From the NCBI GenBank assembly GCA_965217045.1, contig OZ244229.1:265768-329767 (forward strand): a DNA stretch of 64,000 nucleotides, written 5' to 3'. A program made the position numbers and the translations under genes. Positions within the stretch are counted from its first letter, which is position 1. Each line of letters begins with the position of its first letter. This DNA is from Vicinamibacterales bacterium (GTDB lineage: Bacteria; Acidobacteriota; Vicinamibacteria; Vicinamibacterales; UBA8438). The notes under the pieces are model-generated. The model saw only the letters and a program-made list of their open reading frames with translations. It searched no databases and was not told the origin of the DNA. Shown here in pieces: positions 49,898 to 61,700 of the stretch.

Positions 49898-49983
49898 GCC
49901 GGGGTGGCGAAACTGGCAGACGCACGGGACTTAAAATCCCGTGGCCCTGACGGGCCGTGTGGGTTCGATCCCCACCCTCGGCA
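49898..49983 (+). tRNA. tRNA-Leu (anticodon UAA)
   Basis: Manual cloverleaf. Acceptor GCCGGGG/CCTCGGC, anticodon stem CGGGA/TCCCG with loop CTTAAAA, long variable arm GGCCC-TGAC-GGGCC, and T arm GTGGG-TTCGATC-CCCAC. CCA is not encoded. Confidence 0.9.
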
Positions 49984-50086
49984 CTATCCCGCAGTTTTAA
50001 TTAGTTTCAGGACTGGCCACTAGAGCCCATAAACACGGGCTCGTACTGCGATTACCAGTTTCAGTCGGTTCGGGCACATTTCACCG

Positions 50087-50136
50087 CTTCCCACATTTCA
50101 TGTGGTAAACTATGTGGGAAAGATGCTGTGGGAAAG
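50087..50136. promoter_or_regulatory. repeated TGTGGGAA(A)G motifs upstream of the integrase
   Basis: Direct copies at 50113-50122 and 50127-50136, and an inverted copy CTTCCCACA at 50087-50095. AGGAGG at 50136-50141 precedes the GTG at 50149. Confidence 0.4.
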
Positions 50137-50148
50137 GAGGGCTCGAAC

Positions 50149-51324
50149 GTGGCGCGGCTGACTATCGCGATGCTGCGCTCGCTCTCGAAACCAGGCCGGT
50201 ACGGCGACGGCCCGTCCTCAACGTTGTACCTGAACATCGCGCCCGGCGGATCGAAGTCCTGGGTGCAGCGGCTGGTCGTCGCCGGCAAGCGTCGCGACAT
50301 CGGCCTCGGCGGTTTTCCGCTCGTCACGCTGGCCGAGGCGCGGGACCAGGCGTTCGAGAATCGCCGGCTCGCACGCCGAGGCGGTGACCCGCTCGTGGAG
50401 AAGCGGCGTTCCCGGATGCCGACGTTCGCGGAGGCCGTGCGCACGACGTATCAGGCCAACCGGCCGCGGTGGCGTAGCCTCAAGACGGCCCGGATCTGGT
50501 TGCAGCAGCTCGAGCGCCACGCGTTCCCGGTCCTCGCCGATCTGCCTGTCGACCGGATCGGCCGCGAGGAAGTGCTTCGCGTCCTCACGCCGATCTGGAC
50601 CAAGCACCCGGACATCGCGCGCAAGCTCCGCGGTCGCATCCGCGTCACGCTGGCGTGGTGCCAAGCGCACGGCTACATCGAGAACAACGTGGCGGGAGAA
50701 GCCATCGCCGGCGCGCTGCCGGCCATGCCGGCCGTCATGGAGCACTACCGGGCGTTGCCCTTCAAGGAGGTGCCGACCGTCCTGGAGGCCGTGCGGGCGT
50801 CGGGAGCGTCAACGACGTCGAAGCTCGGGTTCGAGTTCTTGGTACTTACGGCCGCGCGAGCCGGCGAGGTCCGGGGCGCGACGTGGTCCGAGGTCGACCT
50901 GGAGGCCCGCGAATGGCGGGTCCCCGCGAAGAGGATGAAGGGCGGGGAGGAGCATCGCGTACCGTTGTCCGACGCTGCAGTCGACGTTGTGGAACGCGCC
51001 CGCCCGTTCCGTGACGGGTCGGACCTGCTGTTTCCCTCCACGTCGCGGCCGGGCAAGCCGCTGAGCAACATGACGTGGACGAAGCTGCTCCGGGGACTAG
51101 GCATCGACGCCGTGCCGCATGGCTTCCGGTCGTCGTTCCGCGATTGGTGCGCTGAGACGGGCAAGCCGCGGGAAGTCGCCGAGGCGGCGTTGGCTCACAC
51201 GGTCGGCGGCGTTGAGGGAGCCTACTTCCGCTCGGACTTGTTCGAACGGCGCCGTCAGTTGATGCAGGGGTGGGCGCAGTTCCTGAGCGGGACCACTGCG
51301 AGGGTGGTTCGCATGCGCGGATAG
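50149..51324 (+). CDS. tyrosine recombinase/integrase, P4-like with N-terminal arm-binding (DUF4102-type) domain
   Basis: ARLTIAMLRSLSKPGRYGDG..LYLNIAPGGSKSWVQR, and C-terminal HGFRSSFRDW...LAHTVGG...AY. It lies immediately 3' of tRNA-Leu. Confidence 0.85.
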   Translation: MARLTIAMLRSLSKPGRYGDGPSSTLYLNIAPGGSKSWVQRLVVAGKRRDIGLGGFPLVTLAEARDQAFENRRLARRGGDPLVEKRRSRMPTFAEAVRTTYQANRPRWRSLKTARIWLQQLERHAFPVLADLPVDRIGREEVLRVLTPIWTKHPDIARKLRGRIRVTLAWCQAHGYIENNVAGEAIAGALPAMPAVMEHYRALPFKEVPTVLEAVRASGASTTSKLGFEFLVLTAARAGEVRGATWSEVDLEAREWRVPAKRMKGGEEHRVPLSDAAVDVVERARPFRDGSDLLFPSTSRPGKPLSNMTWTKLLRGLGIDAVPHGFRSSFRDWCAETGKPREVAEAALAHTVGGVEGAYFRSDLFERRRQLMQGWAQFLSGTTARVVRMRG

Positions 51325-51526
51325 CAGAACATTGTCGTGATCCTGTCGACCCACATCGTGAAGAACCTGAGCGACTTTCTGTCAGACTGAGGACTCTGTG
51401 TGGGAACGACGATCTCCCTCCGCGTCGCAGGTACGGCCATCGATTCGGCGAAGAACGGTCGGGGCGAGGATTATGGCCGCCTATTCCAAGACACCGACCG
51501 CACTGCCTTCGCGCGGAGCGGCTTAG

Positions 51527-52150
51527 CTACGAGAATGTCGACCCTGACCTCAGCGCCAGCCCGCGGGCCACGTCCGCCTCGACCGAACCGTAGAGTCGCC
51601 GGAGCCCTTGCGCGACCGGCTCGAGGGCCGCGAAACGGCTCCCCACCTTGCACACGTGCCAGCCCACACACTCGGCGTTCCAGTGGTCCACCGCCGCGAA
51701 GGTCCAGACCCAGCCGTCGTCGGCCGTGAACACCCGCACGCCGTCGGTACCCCACATGACGTTGGGCGCCGAGGTGACAATCGTGCCGTCGTGCGCCCTC
51801 GAGTCAGCCTGCCGCCCGCGGTGGGGCGAGAGCAACCCCTTCGCGCGCATCACGCGCAACACTCGCGTCCGCGAGACCCACACCCCGTCGAGGATCCGCA
51901 GCCGCGCGTGGACCTTGCGATGGCCCTCGCCCCGGAACGGGGAGCGGGCCAGGTCGCTACGAATGGCCGCCAGTAACTGCGTATCCGACAGCGCGGGCGT
52001 CGGCCCGCGGCGCCCCAGGCCAGCACCCCGCGCTGGGCGCTGCAAACGAGCCCGCCGCGCGTAGAGCGCCGAGCGCGACCGTTCCCACAGTCGACACACC
52101 CGCTCGAGACCATAGCGCCGCCCCGTCGTCGCGGAGGTCGTTGCGCTCAT
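51527..52150 (-). pseudogene. IS3 OrfB (rve) truncated
   Basis: VMWGTDGVRVFTADDGWVWTFAAVDHWNAECVGWH is present, but the remainder of the DDE core is missing. Confidence 0.7.
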
Positions 52151-52584
52151 CGTCGCGACCTCCGCGTCGCCAAAGGGAGGCGACGCTCCGCTCCACGGGC
52201 ACGCTCCCGCAACAGCTCGTTCTCCATCGACAGCTCGCCAATGTGTCGCTTGGCAGCATCCAACTCGGCGGCCAGTGGCTCACCGGCCTGCGCCTTCAGA
52301 CCGAGCTCGAGACCGGCCAGCGCCCGGGCCTTCCACGCCTCCAGGCGATAGACCTCCACCCCGACTTCTCGCGAGACCGCATCCAGCGACTCGCCGCGCA
52401 GCAGCCGCAACACCACGTCCCGTTTCCGGCTTGCGCTCCACCGCTGGCCGAGCGCCAAGGCCCCCAACCCAACCGCCGCGCCGTCGGCGCTGACTCCGGT
52501 CGCCCTCCGGGCTCCCTCCGTCCGCGCCGACGCGGTTCCCTTCACCCATCTCGACCGAGCCATGCCCCCTACCTCCTGTGACAT
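52147..52584 (-). CDS. IS3 transposase OrfA
   Basis: ORF track. HTH region RLLRGESLDAVSREVGV and a coiled-coil tail. It overlaps orfB by ATGA. Confidence 0.7.
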   Translation of the reverse strand: MSQEVGGMARSRWVKGTASARTEGARRATGVSADGAAVGLGALALGQRWSASRKRDVVLRLLRGESLDAVSREVGVEVYRLEAWKARALAGLELGLKAQAGEPLAAELDAAKRHIGELSMENELLRERARGAERRLPLATRRSRR

Positions 52585-53846
52585 CGGATTCTCCCTTAAT
52601 CCGTGTCCAAGAAAACTGGGGGCGCCTCACGCCGTCATCGTAACGCACTCGGGATTCGGCGGGCATGAGTACGATGCGGCCAAAGCATTTTTTCTCCACC
52701 ACGGTCTGGAGCTTCCATCGACACCACTTCTTGCGCCGGAGTTCCGGAACCCACTGTTTCTCAAGACCTTGTGCCGGGGTCTCGAGACGAAAGGGGAGCG
52801 TCGCCTCCCTCGGGGCATTCACGGTATCACCGCGGTGTTCGACTTGTATTTCGTTGCAGTCAACGACCGGCTGGCCTCGACCCTTGATTTCGACTCCCGG
52901 ACTCCACTCGTGCGACAGGCGGTTGAGGCCGTTGCGGAGGCGAGTCTCGATTCAGGCAGGCCATGGCTTACCCTGGCGGAGACTGGAGAAGTCGTCAACG
53001 GGTTCTTGGGCGGGCGCGGCTTTGAGCGATCTCTTTATCGGGGGCTGGTCGCGGAGGGTGTCCTCGTTGAGGAGGTGGCGTCATTGCCCGCCGAGAATAC
53101 GGAAATTGTGGTCATCATTGGGTACGAGCGCTGTGCTGATCACCTCGTGGCGAAGATCCTATTGGACAGATATCTCGACCTCAATGATCCTGGCGTTGCA
53201 TTTGCGGAGACTGGAGGTTTGGAGTTTGTCGGCGATGACAAGCGCTACGTTTCGCCTGGTCTCCTGGAGGCCCTGTGCATTCAGGTGCCCGAGCAGACCG
53301 GACAAGAACTCATTTCGGTCGCGCCAACGTGTGCCGATCGATTGGGGTTCGGTGATGCGTTCCGGCAGAGTCTTGTCTGGCGGGCGTACGCGGCTTTTTC
53401 GGAGGGAACCCACGGAGCCATAAACAGGCTGTGCCGAAGCAACGAAGACCTGAACGATACGATCGATGTGCTGCTCACCGTCGCCACGTTGCCCGAACAC
53501 CCGCTCAATGCGCGCTATCTCAATGGGCGGCTGCGAGAGGACGCGCTGCCGGAACGGGATGCGTGGTGGAGCGTGTACCTCCACCACGCCTATGGTGAGG
53601 GCGGCGCCGTCGACAGACTAGTTGAGCCGCTTGCAAAACTCCCGGGGGATTGGGGTGGGCGCAGTCCTCAGCTCTCTTGGTGAACACGATTGCCCTGGAT
53701 CGCCGACTGGATATCTTGTCGGGAGAACCGGCGGCACGCCGGAGGTAGAAGTCGGATGTTTCGACGTGTTCTCGACCGCGCGTTGGGACACCCGTGGGTG
53801 ACTGACGCCCGTCGGGCGCCGAGGGGCGTTGCCGGCGGTGCACTGG

Positions 53847-55133
53847 TTATGTCACGAGGCGCACGAGTTGGTCGGCGGTGAGTGCGAGCACGCCGAACAT
53901 GCAGTGGCACATCACTTTCGAGGCGCCACGGACCCGGACATGGCGACCGCCGAACTCGTCCTTGAGTCGGCCATTGACGCGCTCACCCGCCGTACGCTCG
54001 TTGTAGCGAGCCTGCTCGGGAAGCTGAAAGCCGATACGCTGCAGGCGCCGGGCTTCGGTTCGCAATTCCTCCGCCAGCGCCTTGTCGCGGCGGGGGTTGG
54101 TGTCAATCAACGGGACGTGGCCGAGTGAGCGGCTGTGCTGGCGGATCGGTTCCGCGTCGTAGGCGGCGTCCATCAGGTCATACAGATTGGTCGTTCGCTC
54201 GGCCGACAAGGTCGCCAGCGGAATGGCGGCTTGGCTGTCGTGCAGGGAGGCGGACGTCAGCAGGCAACTGATCGGAATCTGGCCGTCGGCCACGTCGAGG
54301 TGCAGCTTGTAGCCGACCCAGGTCGACTTGTAGCCCTTGCTGTCCTTTTTCATGCCCACGTCACAGTCGGTCGGCAGGTCGTCGAGCATCGCCGGCAAGG
54401 TCATGGCCGCCTGCCGGTCGAGGCGCTTGAGGACCTTCGGCCGTTCCTCACCCTTCTTCGGCCGTCCCCGCTTGCGCTTGGGCAGCGGGGGCGTCTTTTC
54501 CTTCGCGGCCGGCTTCTCGCGGGCCTCGATGGCCGTCGAGTCGCGGCAGAGGTGACCCACCAACCGGTCGTGGTGGGTGTTGCGGATCAACGCTGCATGC
54601 GTGCGCTGGGGCAACTGTGTGTCGGAGAACTCGACGAAGGCGCGTGAGAAGACCGACTCGCTCGGCACCTCGCTCTTCCGCTCCCAGCCGCAGATCCGGG
54701 CCGCAGTGCCACCGGTCGTCGGTGACCAACGCTGCGCGTCCAGCAGCACGCGCGCGTCGGCAGACCGACTCGCTCGGACCTCGCTCTTCCGCTCCCAGCC
54801 GCAGATCCGCCGCAGCGCCACGTCGGCGTCCAGCAGCACGCGCGTCGTCGGCATGTCGTAGACCGCCTTGGCCACGAAGGCTCGCGCCAGTGCCGCGCGG
54901 TCCTTGCGCGGACGCCCCGGCACCCGGAAGCACCGGGGAATCCACTGCTCGATACGGATGACCTCGAGAGTCTGCACCAACTGCTGCTGTTTCCCGGTCA
55001 GCGGACCCAACACGGGCTCCAACTGGGGGAACAGCGCACGCTGGATCGACTGCCAATAGGGGGCGAAGGAACCACGCAGGCAGTTCATGGTTTGTTTGAT
55101 TGACCACTCCTGCCTACTACTGTATATTAGCAA
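53847..55133 (-). CDS. DDE transposase (DUF772-type N-terminal domain plus DDE_Tnp_1-type core); the likely true start is MNCLRGS at 55088
   Basis: ORF track. GRPRKDRAALARAFVAKAVY and YKLHLDV...LMDAAYDA...NERTAGERVNGRLKDEFG. It contains an internal tandem duplication. Confidence 0.85.
   Translation of the reverse strand: MLIYSSRQEWSIKQTMNCLRGSFAPYWQSIQRALFPQLEPVLGPLTGKQQQLVQTLEVIRIEQWIPRCFRVPGRPRKDRAALARAFVAKAVYDMPTTRVLLDADVALRRICGWERKSEVRASRSADARVLLDAQRWSPTTGGTAARICGWERKSEVPSESVFSRAFVEFSDTQLPQRTHAALIRNTHHDRLVGHLCRDSTAIEAREKPAAKEKTPPLPKRKRGRPKKGEERPKVLKRLDRQAAMTLPAMLDDLPTDCDVGMKKDSKGYKSTWVGYKLHLDVADGQIPISCLLTSASLHDSQAAIPLATLSAERTTNLYDLMDAAYDAEPIRQHSRSLGHVPLIDTNPRRDKALAEELRTEARRLQRIGFQLPEQARYNERTAGERVNGRLKDEFGGRHVRVRGASKVMCHCMFGVLALTADQLVRLVT
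54651..54853 (-). repeat. in-frame tandem duplication of about 112 bp inside the transposase gene
   Basis: GACCGACTCGCTCGG(C)ACCTCGCTCTTCCGCTCCCAGCCGCAGATCC...GTCCAGCAGCACGCGCG occurs at 54651 and again at 54763. The peptide ICGWERKSEV and the RVLLDA motif are repeated. Confidence 0.8.
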
Positions 55134-55160
55134 ACATCAAGGATGTGAAACAACGAATCG

Positions 55161-55508
55161 ATGGCCTACAGCGCAGCGTTACGCCGCTATGAGGAGCAAT
55201 ACGACGCGCTCAAGGCGGAACTGCAAACGCTCGGGTTCGTAGGCCAGGGCGGCGTTCACACCCGCCGGATAACGTGTGGGAGGGCTACCTGTCGCTGCCA
55301 CGACGACCCGGACGCCCGTCACGGCCCCTACCACTACTGGACGCGCAAGGCCCGCGGAAAGACCGTCGGCTTGAACCTCACCGAAGACGAACTCGTCCTC
55401 TACCGGGAGTGGATCGAGAACAACCGTAAACTGGAACGGCTCGTGAAGGAAATGCGCCACCTCTCTTCGCGTGCGCTTGCCCTCATAACCGGCAGGCAGG
55501 CTCCATGA
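55161..55508 (+). CDS. small Cys-rich IS accessory protein (DUF6788-like)
   Basis: ORF track. 115 aa, paralog of 1191-1652, and inside the IS boundaries. Confidence 0.6.
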   Translation: MAYSAALRRYEEQYDALKAELQTLGFVGQGGVHTRRITCGRATCRCHDDPDARHGPYHYWTRKARGKTVGLNLTEDELVLYREWIENNRKLERLVKEMRHLSSRALALITGRQAP

Positions 55509-55731
55509 ACCCCCGTGTCGCCGGCTTCCCGGGCGCGGTCACTGCCATCCTGCGAATGCTGCATCCCGCCCGCTGACCGTCCCTCGCCCCGCCGCCTCCG
55601 GCAGGGAAAACTCGGCCGATCACGCGTTTCGCAAGAGGCTCTAGTTGATTGGGCATCCTCGCTGGATTCGGGCAGACCCATCAATGACGACGCGGTGGAT
55701 CTGTGCGCAGTGGCGCTCGCGTGGATGCTTA

Positions 55732-57425
55732 GCCCGGATTATGCGTGAAGGTGCGGTTGAGGGGGAGACACAGGAGCCTCCGTGTGGTACAAACGTAATG
55801 TACACAACGTTTTAGCCACAACGGAGATCCCTGCGTGACGCCTCACACGATGCCACAGACTGTTCTGTTCCCGGATCTGTTCGACAAGCCCCTCGTCGCC
55901 ACGTTCAACCAGGAACACGCGAGTTCCGACGGCGGCGCCGTCCTGCTCAAGGCGGCCGAGCGCGTGTACGGCTTGGTCAAGGCGTTCGCCCAGTGTCTGG
56001 CCGACAAGCGCGCCGCGGAGAAGATTCGGCACACGTTCGCGGATCTGATCGGCCAGCGGATCTTCGGCATCGCGTGCGGTCATCCCGATGGCAACGATGC
56101 CGACCACTTGGCCGACGACCCCATCCACAAGCTGCTGCTCGGGCGGGACCCGGTGTCCGGCGCGCCCTTGGCGTCGCAACCTACGATCTCGCGGTTCGAG
56201 AACGGCGCGACCCGCACCGCGCTCTACCGGATGGGGCGCGAGTTGGCGGCGTGCGTCATCGAGCGGCATCGGCGCCGCCTGCACGGGCGGGCGCGGCTCG
56301 TCACCATCGATCTGGATCCGACCGACGACCTGACGCACGGCGCCCAGCAGCTCACGTTCTTCAACGGGCACTATGGCGGCTGGTGTTATCTGCCGCTGCT
56401 CGGGTTTCTGAGCTTCGACCGCGAGGCGGAGCAGTATCTGTGCGCGGCGGTGCTGCGGCCCGGCAACGCAGTGGCCGCCGACGGGACCCTCGGGCTGCTG
56501 TGTCGGCTGCTCCCGCTGCTGCGGGCGGCGTTTCCGCGGGCGCGGTTTCTCGTTCGGCTCGACGGGGGCTTTGCGACCCCGGAGGTCTTCGAGTTCCTGG
56601 ATGCGGAGCCCCGGCTCGACTACGTGGTGGCGATGGCGAAAAATGCGGTTTTGGAGCGGCATGCCGAATCCGCGCTGCAGACGGCGCGCACGCAGAGCGA
56701 GGTCAGTGGCGAGACCGCACACGTCTATACCGACGCCCGCTACGCCGCCCGCACCTGGGGCCATGAGCGCCGGGTGGTGATCAAAGCCGAAGTGGTCCGC
56801 CTCGGCGAACGTGCGCCGCGGGACAACCCGCGCTTCGTGGTGACGAACCTGCGCCAGACGCCGCGTTTCATCTACGAGAAGGTCTACTGTGCGCGGGGGG
56901 ACATCGAGAACCGGATCAAGGAGTTGCTCGACGGCCTGCAGATCGACCGCACGAGCTGCTGCCGGTTCTGGGCCAACCAACTGCGCGTCTTGCTGACGGC
57001 CGCAGCCTACGTGCTGATGCAGGAGCTGCGGCTGCGGGCGGCGGGCACCGCGTGCGCCCGCACCCAGGTGACGTGGCTACGCGACCGATTGCTCAAGCTC
57101 GGGGTCCAGGTCGTCCGCTCGGTCCGCCGGCTCGTTCTGCATCTGCCGCGGGCCACGCCGCAGCGCGAGGCATGGCAGCGCATCGCCCTCGCACTCGGCG
57201 CACGTGCCGGATAGCCCATCCGTCCCGCCGCACCAAGCTCCCTCGGGGACGATACGGACCGTCTCCAGGAGAAGCTGTCGACACTCGGGCTCACCGCGCC
57301 CGGCCATCGCCCCATGGCTCGCCCCGCAACCCCCTCGCAGCCCCCAAATGACGATGGCGAAACCCTGTTCGTCGTCCCGCCACGCCCTGTCGATCCCGAA
57401 TATCGAGCTTCAGGAATAATGCGGG
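55732..57425 (+). mobile_element. IS1380-family insertion sequence
   Basis: Inverted repeats GCCCGGATTATGCGTGAAGG (55732) and CCCGCATTATTCCTGAAGC (reverse complement of 57425), about 15/19. It is flanked by TTA at 55729-55731 and 57426-57428. The boundaries are good to about 2 nt. Confidence 0.75.
55835..57214 (+). CDS. IS1380-family DDE transposase
   Basis: ORF track. FNQEHASSDGGAVLL, DLDPTDD, YCARGDIENRIKEL. Confidence 0.85.
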   Translation: MTPHTMPQTVLFPDLFDKPLVATFNQEHASSDGGAVLLKAAERVYGLVKAFAQCLADKRAAEKIRHTFADLIGQRIFGIACGHPDGNDADHLADDPIHKLLLGRDPVSGAPLASQPTISRFENGATRTALYRMGRELAACVIERHRRRLHGRARLVTIDLDPTDDLTHGAQQLTFFNGHYGGWCYLPLLGFLSFDREAEQYLCAAVLRPGNAVAADGTLGLLCRLLPLLRAAFPRARFLVRLDGGFATPEVFEFLDAEPRLDYVVAMAKNAVLERHAESALQTARTQSEVSGETAHVYTDARYAARTWGHERRVVIKAEVVRLGERAPRDNPRFVVTNLRQTPRFIYEKVYCARGDIENRIKELLDGLQIDRTSCCRFWANQLRVLLTAAAYVLMQELRLRAAGTACARTQVTWLRDRLLKLGVQVVRSVRRLVLHLPRATPQREAWQRIALALGARAG

Positions 57426-57428
57426 TTA

Positions 57429-58723
57429 GGACAGTGATCGATATAAAGTTATCAACTTCATCGGGGTAACAGTTTGTAATTCCATTCCCCATGGAACGTA
57501 TCGCGGACCAGCGCGATTGCGTCCATCTGTTCCTTGGTCACCGTAACGCCCGTGGGATACTGCCCGGCGTCGAGTTCGGCCAGGACCCGGAGCCCGGTCG
57601 CCGTCCGGGTGTTCCCGATGCGGTCGACGATAGTCTCATAGGTCGTCAGCGGGGTGCCGCGCCAGTTCGCCGTGATGTGACAGAAGAGCCGGTGTTCGAT
57701 CTTGTTCCACTTGCTGGTGCCGGGTGGACAATGACTCACCTGGATGGTCAGTCCGGTCTCGTCGGCCAACTGTTGAAGCTCATGCTTCCAGGCGCGAGAC
57801 CGATACCCGTTGCTCCCGCCCGCATCGGCCGTGACGAACAGGGCGGTGGCGTCGGGGTAGGCGCCGCAGCCCATCTGGCGCCACCAGTGGCGAATCGACG
57901 CCACCGCGAACGTCGGTGTGTCGTGGTCCCATCCCACGCTCACCCAGGCTTCGTTGCGCGCCATGTCGTAGACGCCGTACGGAATCGCCTTGCCCTCGGC
58001 GTCGGTTGGGAAATCATGGACCAACACCGCCGGCGGCGTGCCCTTCGGCTGCCATTCCCGCCCGCCGTTCTTGAAGTTTCCGACCAGCTCTTTCTTCTTC
58101 GTGTCGACCGAGATCACCGGCCGCCCCTCGGCCAGAAACGCGTCCGCGGTCGCGTTGATGTGCTCGAACTGCGCGTTACGGTCCGGGTGGCTCGCTCCCT
58201 CCTGGCGCTTGCGGGGCGATTGCAGCCGGTAGCCCAGTTGATGCAGCATCCGGCCGACGGTGGTCGAACTCACTCGCCACCCCTGTTGTGTCAGCGCCGC
58301 GGCCAGCTTCGCCCGACTCTTGCCTGTCCAGCGTAGCGGCGAGGTCGGGTCTCCGCGCGTCAGCGGGTCCACCAGCGCTTCGAGTGCGGCCAGCAGACCG
58401 GGCTGGCTCTGTTCGAGACGGGGCCGCCCGGCGCCCGGACGTCGTACCCGGTCTGTCGGCGTTTGGCCTTGCGAGATCTCCCGGCGACCCTTCCGGATCG
58501 TCTCCCGGGCCAGACCCGTGGCCGACGAGACCAGCGCGTCCCCGCCATAGCCGATGAACAAAGACTCGGTGGCCGCCCACCGGCGGCGACTGCGCTCATC
58601 CAACACGGGCGAGACCACCGCGTACTTCGCGACGATGGTGGCTTCCAATTCCACGTTGCGCTGCATGCAACCGAAATAGACTACGAAACCCAGAAGATAG
58701 CAAGTTAATTGCCGCCAGTGGCC
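57429..58723 (-). mobile_element. ISAzo13-family insertion sequence
   Basis: Ends GGACAGTGATCGATATAAAG (57429) and GGCCACTGGCGGCAATTAAC (reverse complement of 58723). It is flanked by TTA at 57426-57428 and 58724-58726. The same arms are found in the MITE at 22301-22401. Confidence 0.7.
57458..58666 (-). CDS. ISAzo13-family (Rhodopirellula-type DDE) transposase
   Basis: ORF track. SRRRWAATESL, ISVDTKKKELVGNFKNGGREW, HCPPGTSKWNKIEHRLF. Confidence 0.85.
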   Translation of the reverse strand: MQRNVELEATIVAKYAVVSPVLDERSRRRWAATESLFIGYGGDALVSSATGLARETIRKGRREISQGQTPTDRVRRPGAGRPRLEQSQPGLLAALEALVDPLTRGDPTSPLRWTGKSRAKLAAALTQQGWRVSSTTVGRMLHQLGYRLQSPRKRQEGASHPDRNAQFEHINATADAFLAEGRPVISVDTKKKELVGNFKNGGREWQPKGTPPAVLVHDFPTDAEGKAIPYGVYDMARNEAWVSVGWDHDTPTFAVASIRHWWRQMGCGAYPDATALFVTADAGGSNGYRSRAWKHELQQLADETGLTIQVSHCPPGTSKWNKIEHRLFCHITANWRGTPLTTYETIVDRIGNTRTATGLRVLAELDAGQYPTGVTVTKEQMDAIALVRDTFHGEWNYKLLPR

Positions 58724-61700
58724 TTACCACATCCAATCGGTTTCTCCGTGACCGCGCAACGACGGCTCTCGTGACCCTTCTGACAGGCCGCATGCAGGCT
58801 GTCGGTCACCTCGTTGAGCGGTTCGCGGATGTTGACGACCCGTACGTCACGGAGCGCATCTACGCAGTGGCGTACGGGGTGGCCATGCGTTGTCACGATC
58901 CTGTGGCTGTCGGTACTCTGGCAACGCGCGTGTATGAAAGAGTATTCGCTTCGCAGAATCCTCCTGCGCATATCCTCTTGAGGGATTACGCTCGCGGCGT
59001 TATCGAGCGAGCGCTGCACCTTGGCTCAAAAATCGACGTGGTCCCCGATCGCGTTCGCCCGCCCTAGAGCACGTGGCCTGCAATCCCGACCGAGGAGGAC
59101 ATTAAGACTCTGTTACCTAACTGGTCTAAGGGGTCCCATGACAGCGGCGAACTTGAGTGGGCGCACAACCGGATCGGGCACTCGGTCATGGATGACGACT
59201 TCGCACTGTATGTTATCGGTACCAACTCGTCGGATATCGATTGGCTGTCACTCAAGGTGGATGACCCACAGTGGAGGCGGGCGGCTCGACCGGAGGATGC
59301 GTTACGCTCTCTGGTTGACGAGTTCTCGTCCGATGAGCGCAAAGGCTGGGAACAGCTTGTGGCTGCTGCCGAGGTACGTGCGACGGCCTTGCGGTCGTTC
59401 GCTGCCGAATCGTTCGCACGACGCGAGAAGGAGGGCAAATCCGCAAGCCCTGATGTTTCCGATTCGGAAGCCGTGGCGAAGGAATTTGAAAAGGCATGTC
59501 CGTCCGAAAGTGTGGCGCTGGGAGGCGCGCTCGAGCAAGCAATGGGCGCCTTGGAGGCGGTTCTCTCCGACGAGCATGCCGAGTGCTTGGCCGGGATCTT
59601 GTCCTCGCGGGACAACGACCAGGAGTCACGTGAGCCGCCGCGGTTCGCGGTCGGCGAGATTCAGAGGTACGTGCTCTGGCGGGTGTTCGACCTGGGATGG
59701 ACGATCAAGCTTTTCGGGCACTTCGACCGCTTCTCCGTCGGATACCACGGCCGCGACGCGTCCAAGGCTGAGCGAATCGGCAAGAAATACCAGTGGATCG
59801 CATATCATGAAATCATGGCACTGGTTGCCGATCACTACCAATACCGAGACCGTTTTCGCGAGGAAGACGGCGATAGGTTGTATCAAGGACCTTGGCAGAA
59901 TTATTTCCGGGACATCGATCCCTCTTGCACGCTGAGATCACTACCAGGCGGAACCTCCTGGCGTGTTCAGCCAGCGTCGTGGTGGGCGTCGGCTCGGTAC
60001 AATTCTTGGGGAGATCCGGCTAGGCCTCGGGACTGGGTCCTGAGTGCCGACGATTTGCCGAGGGTCGAGGACCTGCTTGTCGTCACGGACTCAGCGGACC
60101 GGTCGGGGTGGGTAAATGGCCAAGGCTCCTTTTCTTGGGAGCAGAAACCGCCGGCAGATAGGGAATCGACGGATGTCGAACTTCGCGAGCTGTGGTACAT
60201 GTTCATCGGCTACCTGGTCCGGGCAGATGATGCCGCGTCGTTCTTAGCGTGGGCCGAGACAGTTGACTTTATGGGCCGTTGGATGCCGGAGGCGGGTGGA
60301 GGCCACGAGGTGTTTCTGGGCGAACACGCGTGGGCGCCGGCCTTTCACTACGTCCAGCGTCCATACTACGGTGAAGGGGGCTGGACCCAGCCGCGCCACG
60401 GCTGCCCAGTGAAGGTTCTGACCCTCACGTCGACGCATCTGCGGGAAAAGAGCGGTTTCGACTGCTCGATGGAAGAGAGTTACACACTCCATCTACCCGT
60501 GGGGGATCTTGTCTGCGGCCTCGGGATTCGATGGAGCGGGCGTGGCGCTGATTTCCTGGATGGTGAGAATCGAATCGTTGCACAGGATCCAGCAGTTCAT
60601 TCCGAGGGTCCGAGCGCCATGCTTCTTAGAGAAGATCTACTTGGAGGGTTTCTCGACCGCGAGAAGCTGACGATCTGCTGGGCGGTCCTGGGTGAGAAGC
60701 GCGTGATTTCGCCGGGCTATGGAGCCGGGGCGCGTTATCCGTGGCTCCGTATGTCCGGCGCGTACAGGCTTTCAAAGGGACGAGCGGTGGGCTTTCTGAA
60801 ACACATGGCCGATGATCTGAAGAGGGAAGAGGGCCACGGCCCTGACTTGAAGGTAGTCAGGATCGTCAGGACTCGGATTGGCAATGGACAGTAGAGACGC
60901 GCGTCGCGGTACGATGGAACCTCGGGTGCGACAGAGCCGGGTCCGCAACCAGCGTCCGCGGATTGTAGGAGGCGGAGCACGACCACGGGATCGTTGGGTG
61001 TATCGGACCGGGGAGGTCGGCGTACCGGGCCGGACGACGATGCATATGACTCTGCAGAGTGGCTCGCGGACAACCTGGGTTGGTCCGGGGGACGAGATCG
61101 GCAACGAACCGAGCGGGAGATCACAAAGGCGCGCGTGGACTGCCTCCGTGCGGACATCGTGGCCGCAAGCCTGTGAGACAACAATAGCCTTGCTCGCATC
61201 GAGGACGCGACACAGCAAAGGATGACAGGCCGCTGGCGCCGGCTCCAGGCTGGCCGGTGGCTGTCCGTGTTCGTCCGTCCGGCCATCGATCACTCGTCGG
61301 CACCGACGTCGCCGCGCTTGCGGCGTGCGCCCGGACCGTTGCGGTCGGGGCAGGGTGACACAATGAGCCGCGGCGTCGCGACAGGCAATCAGAACCCCGT
61401 TGTCCACTGCCGGCCGCTACGACGCCCGGCAATCCGGCTCAGAACGAGGGACGGCTGGTGACTGACCGGCGTACCGTGACCAGCACCGCCGTCCGTGTCG
61501 CTGCCAGAGTGGTCCAACAGAACCACGGCGACGCCGCCTCACCCAACGGGATTCCGACCAATAGCATAAGTTGCATATTCGTAGTTTCTTGTGCCTAGCC
61601 TGTCGCCACGGGTACCACGTCCAGTACCACGCTGGACCGGGGTGTCGCCGGGCACGTTGAGCGCATTGACGACGAGCGGTCCGCCGATGCCACCGTCGCT

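Follow-up and report, generated by a model that had tools for sequence, protein, structure and literature searches.

An avs2 antiphage gene broken up by insertion sequences in a Vicinamibacterales genomic island

The broken gene and its identity

We analysed a stretch of 64,000 nucleotides from a Vicinamibacterales bacterium of the phylum Acidobacteriota (assembly GCA_965217045.1, contig OZ244229.1, forward-strand positions 265,768 to 329,767; hereafter the window, in whose own numbering positions are given), and within it a broken gene at 52630-60894 that is a remnant of avs2, the gene of the AVAST type 2 anti-phage system, whose product is an antiviral STAND NTPase. Three pieces of this gene are retained between insertion sequences (ISs). 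They are listed here with the matching residues of an intact homolog, the protein P0002, with their positions on the NCBIfam Avs2 profile (NF041813.1), and with the matching ranges of L006, which together with L005 is one of the two closest intact homologs for which we compared DNA:

52630..53623, forward strand: avs2 fragment A; P0002 residues 487-816; profile positions 298-636, 356 bits; 80% nucleotide identity to L006 8856-9860
55647..55731, forward strand: avs2 fragment B; 28 codons, P0002 residues 817-844, translation DWASSLDSGRPINDDAVDLCAVALAWML; profile positions 631-664; L006 9853-9943
58727..60894, forward strand: avs2 fragment C; P0002 residue 845 to the end; profile positions 663-1316 of 1317, 663 bits, with an in-frame TAG inside; L006 9940-12092; EcAvs2 residues 1095-1476

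Joining these three pieces yields 3247 nt that read, from the second base, as 1081 codons with a single internal stop, the TAG at 59065-59067, ahead of the natural stop at 60892-60894. The pieces are co-linear with the DNA of both L006 and L005 and show no loss or gain at the junctions; nucleotide identity to L006 is ~80%, and the small overlaps between successive L006 ranges are the target-site duplications of the ISs. They are co-linear along the Avs2 profile as well. The initial annotation, made from the sequence alone, had held that the segments join in frame into a protein of at least 1080 residues, and their alignment to homologs as one protein bears this out.

Database comparisons of the joined protein place it in a known family. 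It matches the NCBIfam equivalog NF041813.1 (‘AVAST type 2 anti-phage system protein Avs2’) at 1078.9 bits against a curated cut-off of 1000 bits, in one stretch covering profile positions 302-1316 of 1317, and the PADLOC search that the initial annotation had proposed for the rebuilt reading frame likewise returned Avs2, with six of six Avs2 models matching and PDLC02164 at the top (1078 bits, one stretch, 479-1494 of 1504). Among PDB sequences phmmer found one relative, EcAvs2 (9o4e, E 1.6e-143), aligned over EcAvs2 residues 474-1003 and 1095-1476. A large protein database held more than 2000 relatives, the best of them 1545-1565 residues long and at most 76% identical, several being named Avs2 by NCBI. 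Pfam gave no match to the joined protein at E <= 1. The locus is an Avs2 remnant by descent and a non-functional member of its family; the earlier description of an unrecognised family has to be dropped, while the guess that went with it, that the product was a large protein linked to defence or NTPases and that its gene sat in an integrase island, proved right. In a genome overrun by ISs, the gene is an ordinary casualty and no new kind of gene.

What remains is the C-terminal side of the protein. Fragment A contains the end of the nucleotide-binding domain, the helical and winged-helix domains and the start of the TPR sensor, and fragment C contains the remaining TPR domain and the beta-rich C-terminal sensor, such that the C-terminal TPR domain and sensor of Avs2 are present to the end of the profile, though interrupted by three ISs and the TAG.

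Insertion sequences and the internal stop codon

Five lesions mark the locus, four of them ISs and one a stop codon within fragment C:

51548..52629, reverse strand: IS3-family remnant, with orfA at 52147-52584 and a truncated orfB at 51527-52150; NCBIfam transpos_IS3; Pfam rve truncated at 44 of 102
53624..55641, reverse strand: IS5/IS1182-like element of 2018 bp, with a transposase at 53847-55133 (reverse strand); Pfam DDE_Tnp_1, DUF772 and DUF6788
55733..57425, forward strand: IS1380-family element; NCBIfam transpos_IS1380, 349 bits; ~107 loci in the genome
~57430..58724, reverse strand: ISAzo13-family element; NCBIfam transpos_ISAzo13, 570 bits; ~29 loci in the genome; ends compared with other copies
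59065..59067, forward strand: in-frame TAG produced by a 3-bp deletion; homologs read CCC TAC AAG AGC (P-Y-K-S), the window CCC TAG AGC

The IS3 remnant has an intact outer end, terminating in CA at 52629, and adjoins avs2 at 52629/52630. Compared with full copies (there are ~33 related loci in the genome) it is ~340 bp shorter at its other, left end, where the 3' part of orfB is among the sequence lost. This edge records at least one insertion and one deletion, which jointly removed the 5' 1.46 kb of avs2.

Between fragments A and B lies the IS5/IS1182-like element, bounded by imperfect terminal inverted repeats (GAGCCGCTTGCAAAAC and GAGCCTCTTGCGAAAC) and flanked by direct repeats of TAGTT at 53619-53623 and 55642-55646. 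Five other copies of the element show 4-bp duplications, and the fifth matching base here may be a chance match. Its transposase scores highest on the IS1182 and IS5 models of NCBIfam, both weakly and under the cut-off. The genome has the element at ~94 loci, and 24 of these copies are close to full length. A DUF6788 gene (55161-55508, forward strand), divergent from the transposase, is a constant part of the element. The copy in the window also carries an internal tandem duplication of ~100-111 bp (54640-54860), through which the ICGWERKSEV segment of the transposase occurs twice while the frame stays open; this duplication is absent from all other copies, which are ~1918 bp long.

The two elements between fragments B and C allow their order to be read. 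ISAzo13 was inserted at a TA of avs2 (...ATGCT-TA-CCACATCC...), with the TA repeated at 58725-58726, and IS1380 is flanked on both sides by TTAG (55729-55732 and 57426-57429). The TTAG on the right combines avs2 bases with the initial G of ISAzo13, and therefore IS1380 came after ISAzo13. A pattern scan revealed the same junction, of the right end of IS1380 with the left end of ISAzo13, at four further sites in the genome (contig C1 at ~497929, contig C10 at ~222878 and ~295912, and the minus strand of C10 at ~156652), and a composite on contig C9 (228266-231261, 2996 bp, 99.4% identical) has the junction too, slightly diverged. We considered that IS1380 and ISAzo13 might have moved into avs2 as one composite. 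This is ruled out, since the IS1380 on C9 is bordered on each side by a CTAA duplication of its own, and the TTAG in the window straddles the junction of avs2 and ISAzo13. The two are independent insertions in avs2, and their shared junction reflects a preferred IS1380 target and no composite transposon. This preferred target appears to be the NTAG that arises where the TA meets the initial G of ISAzo13, IS1380's own 4-bp duplication being TTAG in the window and CTAA on C9.

Within fragment C, blastn against L006 and L005 placed a single 3-nt gap exactly at the TAG, where the homologs read PPYKSTW and the window PP*STW; one 3-bp deletion therefore explains both the stop and the missing residue. 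Measured against these results, the five inactivating lesions of the initial annotation stand essentially as counted and all four ISs are real. Corrections apply to some details: the element it called IS4-like scores best on the IS1182 and IS5 models (under cut-off), the 5-bp duplication assigned to that element is present as TAGTT with a fifth base that may owe to chance, and the in-frame TAG at 59065 is there as described and arose by deletion relative to homologs, not by point mutation.

The lost 5' part and the intact homologs

Because the window copy begins at the equivalent of P0002 residue 487, some 486 N-terminal residues (1.46 kb of 5' DNA) are gone. The Walker motifs of P0002, A (GEAGTGKTH, residue 359) and B (LVMIDAINE, residue 431), precede the break at 487, so that the window copy lacks both motifs of the central STAND NTPase as well as the N-terminal effector and the helical linker, all of them encoded in the deleted part. 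The initial annotation saw no catalytic motif for this very reason. We looked for the missing part elsewhere in the assembly (12 contigs, 6.45 Mb, 96.5% complete): the N-terminal 494 residues of P0002 found nothing across the whole assembly (best match E 0.06, irrelevant), and an Avs2 profile search of all contigs left the first 300 profile positions with no counterpart in the genome. Relocation of the 5' part by an IS-mediated rearrangement, which we had considered, finds no support in these searches of the assembly.

These searches bear also on whether the broken gene is an artefact of assembly, with ISs misplaced into an otherwise intact gene. A repeat-rich genome with hundreds of near-identical IS copies, assembled into 12 contigs, is where such errors might be expected, and yet each insertion has the target duplication typical of its element, the flanks rejoin exactly in frame, the ISs carry private substitutions relative to their sisters (one of them a private internal duplication), and none of the contigs contains the 5' part of the gene. 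We regard misassembly as the least credible of the explanations considered here.

As the initial annotation had suggested, we inspected the N-termini and neighbours of intact homologs. Four residues within the first ~170 (D47, E61, Q65 and K67) are invariant in 17 of 17 intact homologs and form a PD-(D/E)xK signature. Pfam searches with the first 200 or 350 residues of one intact homolog gave nothing useful, and the effector was therefore assigned from the invariant residues and a fold search. An AlphaFold model of the homolog N-terminal domain (mean predicted local distance difference test score 72.7), submitted to Foldseek, matched best the N-terminal nuclease of EcAvs4 (8dgf, E 1.7e-4), followed by Cap4 endonucleases, EcoO109I, BamHI, SfsA and NucS. 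The effector of the intact homologs is thus a predicted PD-(D/E)xK nuclease, and signature and fold match together point to an ancestor with a KpAvs2-type layout, in which an Mrr-like nuclease was followed by a helical linker, the STAND ATPase and the sensor.

The intact homologs come from metagenome-assembled genomes (MAGs) and genomes labelled Gammaproteobacteria, Chloroflexota, Verrucomicrobiota, Planctomycetota, Cyanobacteriota, Acidobacteriota, Moorella, Symbiobacterium and methanogenic archaea, and have type I restriction-modification, GmrSD and Schlafen-like genes as neighbours. Two other homologous loci are themselves damaged: in L027 (6001-12116, a Vicinamibacterales MAG) 1.9 kb are inserted near residue 390, the frame is shifted and residues 862-1043 are deleted, and L034 (6001-11048, a Bryobacterales MAG) holds an avs2 with frame changes.

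Island context and probable horizontal origin

The island begins at a tRNA-Leu and includes a tyrosine integrase, both of them upstream of the IS3 remnant:

49898..49984, forward strand: tRNA-Leu(UAA), found by ARAGORN; likely integration site of the island
50128..51324, forward strand: tyrosine integrase of the island; Pfam Phage_integrase, Phage_int_M and Arm-DNA-bind_3

Similar surroundings recur at the closest homologs, with a homologous tRNA-Leu adjoining intact avs2 in L005 and an integrase fragment plus an IS1380 copy directly upstream of intact avs2 in L006. The guanine-cytosine content of the gene is 0.59-0.61 against 0.65-0.72 in its flanks. Avs2 was found in 0 of 40 related genomes searched (13 of the same genus, 11 of the same family, 16 of the same order), and these provided no intact ortholog. 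Homologs scattered over many phyla among other defence genes, with an integrase fragment or a tRNA-Leu beside avs2 in L006 and L005, are what is usually seen for a defence gene that moves horizontally, and published remarks on Avs2 point the same way (PMC13601566). We suggest that avs2 was acquired horizontally, as part of an island inserted at the tRNA-Leu. The 223 bp between the integrase stop and the truncated IS3 end (51325-51547) are unique in the genome, and a frame opening at 51400 within them may be what is left of a further island gene that the same deletion truncated.

Recency and cause of the decay

The retained sequence looks young. Its 3.2 kb of coding sequence holds no frameshift or indel other than the frame-preserving 3-bp deletion at the TAG, and at ~165 columns that are invariant among 53 intact homologs it shows a single change, a conservative L to V, which ranks it 27th among the 54 sequences. 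There is no excess of change at conserved positions, and inactivation was therefore recent. The IS copies, for their part, are 98.7-99.9% identical to sister copies.

The open and conserved state of the sequence might alternatively signal residual function, in that the 568-codon frame after the TAG (59188-60894, the C-terminal sensor) would be expressed, perhaps from an IS-borne outward promoter, and act as a terminase decoy or inhibitor. Its frame is open, its conserved residues are intact, and the C-terminal sensor of EcAvs2 contributes to the terminase interface (PMC13601566). Such a product would nonetheless lack ATPase and effector and would start at an internal codon, recent inactivation explains the intactness equally well, and the best database matches include no stand-alone family of this shape. 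We consider residual function very improbable.

Turning to the genome as a whole, the four IS types are found at ~263 loci and take up 309 kb, which is 4.8% of the genome, and the 100-kb bin that holds avs2 is 20.5% IS, the highest on its contig. An 8.3-kb sliding window passed over the whole genome revealed six regions with at least four such IS loci, namely the avs2 locus and five others. The 6.45-Mb genome also seems to be free of recognisable tailed prophages (no match to four large-terminase families of Pfam) despite its very heavy IS load.

We interpret these patterns as follows. A large IS expansion or burst is probably under way in this genome; a first lesion would have killed a dispensable gene, and later hits would then have been neutral. 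The best and simplest reading is that a defence gene gained by horizontal transfer decayed neutrally, and we put a probability of about 0.9 on the whole account, that the broken gene is a remnant of avs2, disrupted by ISs and decayed neutrally after recent inactivation.

Several points weigh against this account. Taken singly, the fragments score 663, 356 and 20 bits on the family model, each under the cut-off, and only the in-silico join passes it. Under uniform random insertion four ISs in 4.6 kb would be rare (genome-wide mean ~0.2), and the neutral reading hinges on ISs clustering in dispensable DNA, as is observed here. The order of lesions is readable only for ISAzo13 before IS1380. Finally, there is no direct sign that the avs2 of the window was ever active in its host.

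The initial annotation had offered neutral decay and selection against an active copy side by side, and of these we favour the former, in an IS-swamped genome with its other pile-ups, over the latter. Under adaptive loss an active Avs2 would be costly or self-toxic, for example through autoimmunity or by blocking a useful prophage, such that the first disruption was selected and the rest were neutral. Activation of Avs2 by a co-expressed trigger does kill the cell (PMC13601566, PMC11564622), the gene has taken many hits, and visible breaks also mark 2 of 28 homologous loci in the genomes of other species (L027 and L034). Selection can act on the first lesion only, however, so that it does not count how often the gene was hit; IS pile-ups of equal density occur at five other places in the genome; and no resident trigger is evident, with no large-terminase gene found in the whole genome by Pfam TerL_ATPase, Terminase_6N, Terminase_3 or GpA_ATPase. 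Selection against an active copy at the first hit thus has no positive support, and we hold adaptive loss to be unlikely. A broader version, in which the first avs2 disruption was positively selected because an active abortive-infection sensor burdened this lineage, and in which IS expansion is here a means of discarding immune sensors gained by horizontal transfer and not simple decay, appears slightly less likely again.

The correct annotation of the locus is an Avs2 pseudogene inside a decayed tRNA-Leu island, with little significance beyond that. The locus provides a tidy worked example of an IS burst dismantling an accessory defence gene, in which the order of two insertions can be read from target duplications, and it enlarges by one member a nuclease-bearing clade of Avs2 that is spread over many bacterial and archaeal phyla. 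It raises no new question about the mechanism of Avs2.

Comparison with known Avs2 systems

Intact Avs2, as studied in KpAvs2 and EcAvs2 (PMC11564622, PMC13601566), has three parts, these being an N-terminal effector, a central STAND ATPase and a long sensor made of TPR and beta-rich C-terminal domains. In EcAvs2 the TPR and C-terminal sensor domains bind the ATPase domain of the phage large terminase, and the ATP-bound tetramer gathers the N-terminal effectors (PMC13601566). Nuclease-bearing Avs proteins degrade DNA indiscriminately upon infection, and the cell dies before phage release (PMC11564622); co-expression of Avs2 with its trigger likewise ends in cell death (PMC13601566, PMC11564622). 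By analogy with these two proteins, activation by terminase and protection against phage would extend to the clade of the window copy.

KpAvs2 of Klebsiella pneumoniae (Bechon et al. 2024, PMC11564622) has the same layout as the intact homologs of the window copy, with an Mrr-type PD-(D/E)xK nuclease, a helical bundle, a STAND NTPase and the Avs2 sensor. Its nuclease lysine K71 and Walker A lysine K337, both essential for defence (PMC11564622), compare with the invariant K67 and the Walker A at residue 359 in the homologs here. Whereas KpAvs2 works together with two accessory genes of its operon, the intact homologs appear to stand alone, and the window copy differs from KpAvs2 in being without the nuclease and the ATPase core. 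For EcAvs2 of E. coli (cryo-electron microscopy structure 9o4e; Evans et al. 2026, PMC13601566), the effector is uncharacterised, and the predicted PD-(D/E)xK nuclease of the clade's homologs shows no alignment to it, since P0002 matches 9o4e only from residue 173 onwards. The 1081 residues retained in the window match the end of the EcAvs2 ATPase, its TPR domain and its terminase-binding sensor.

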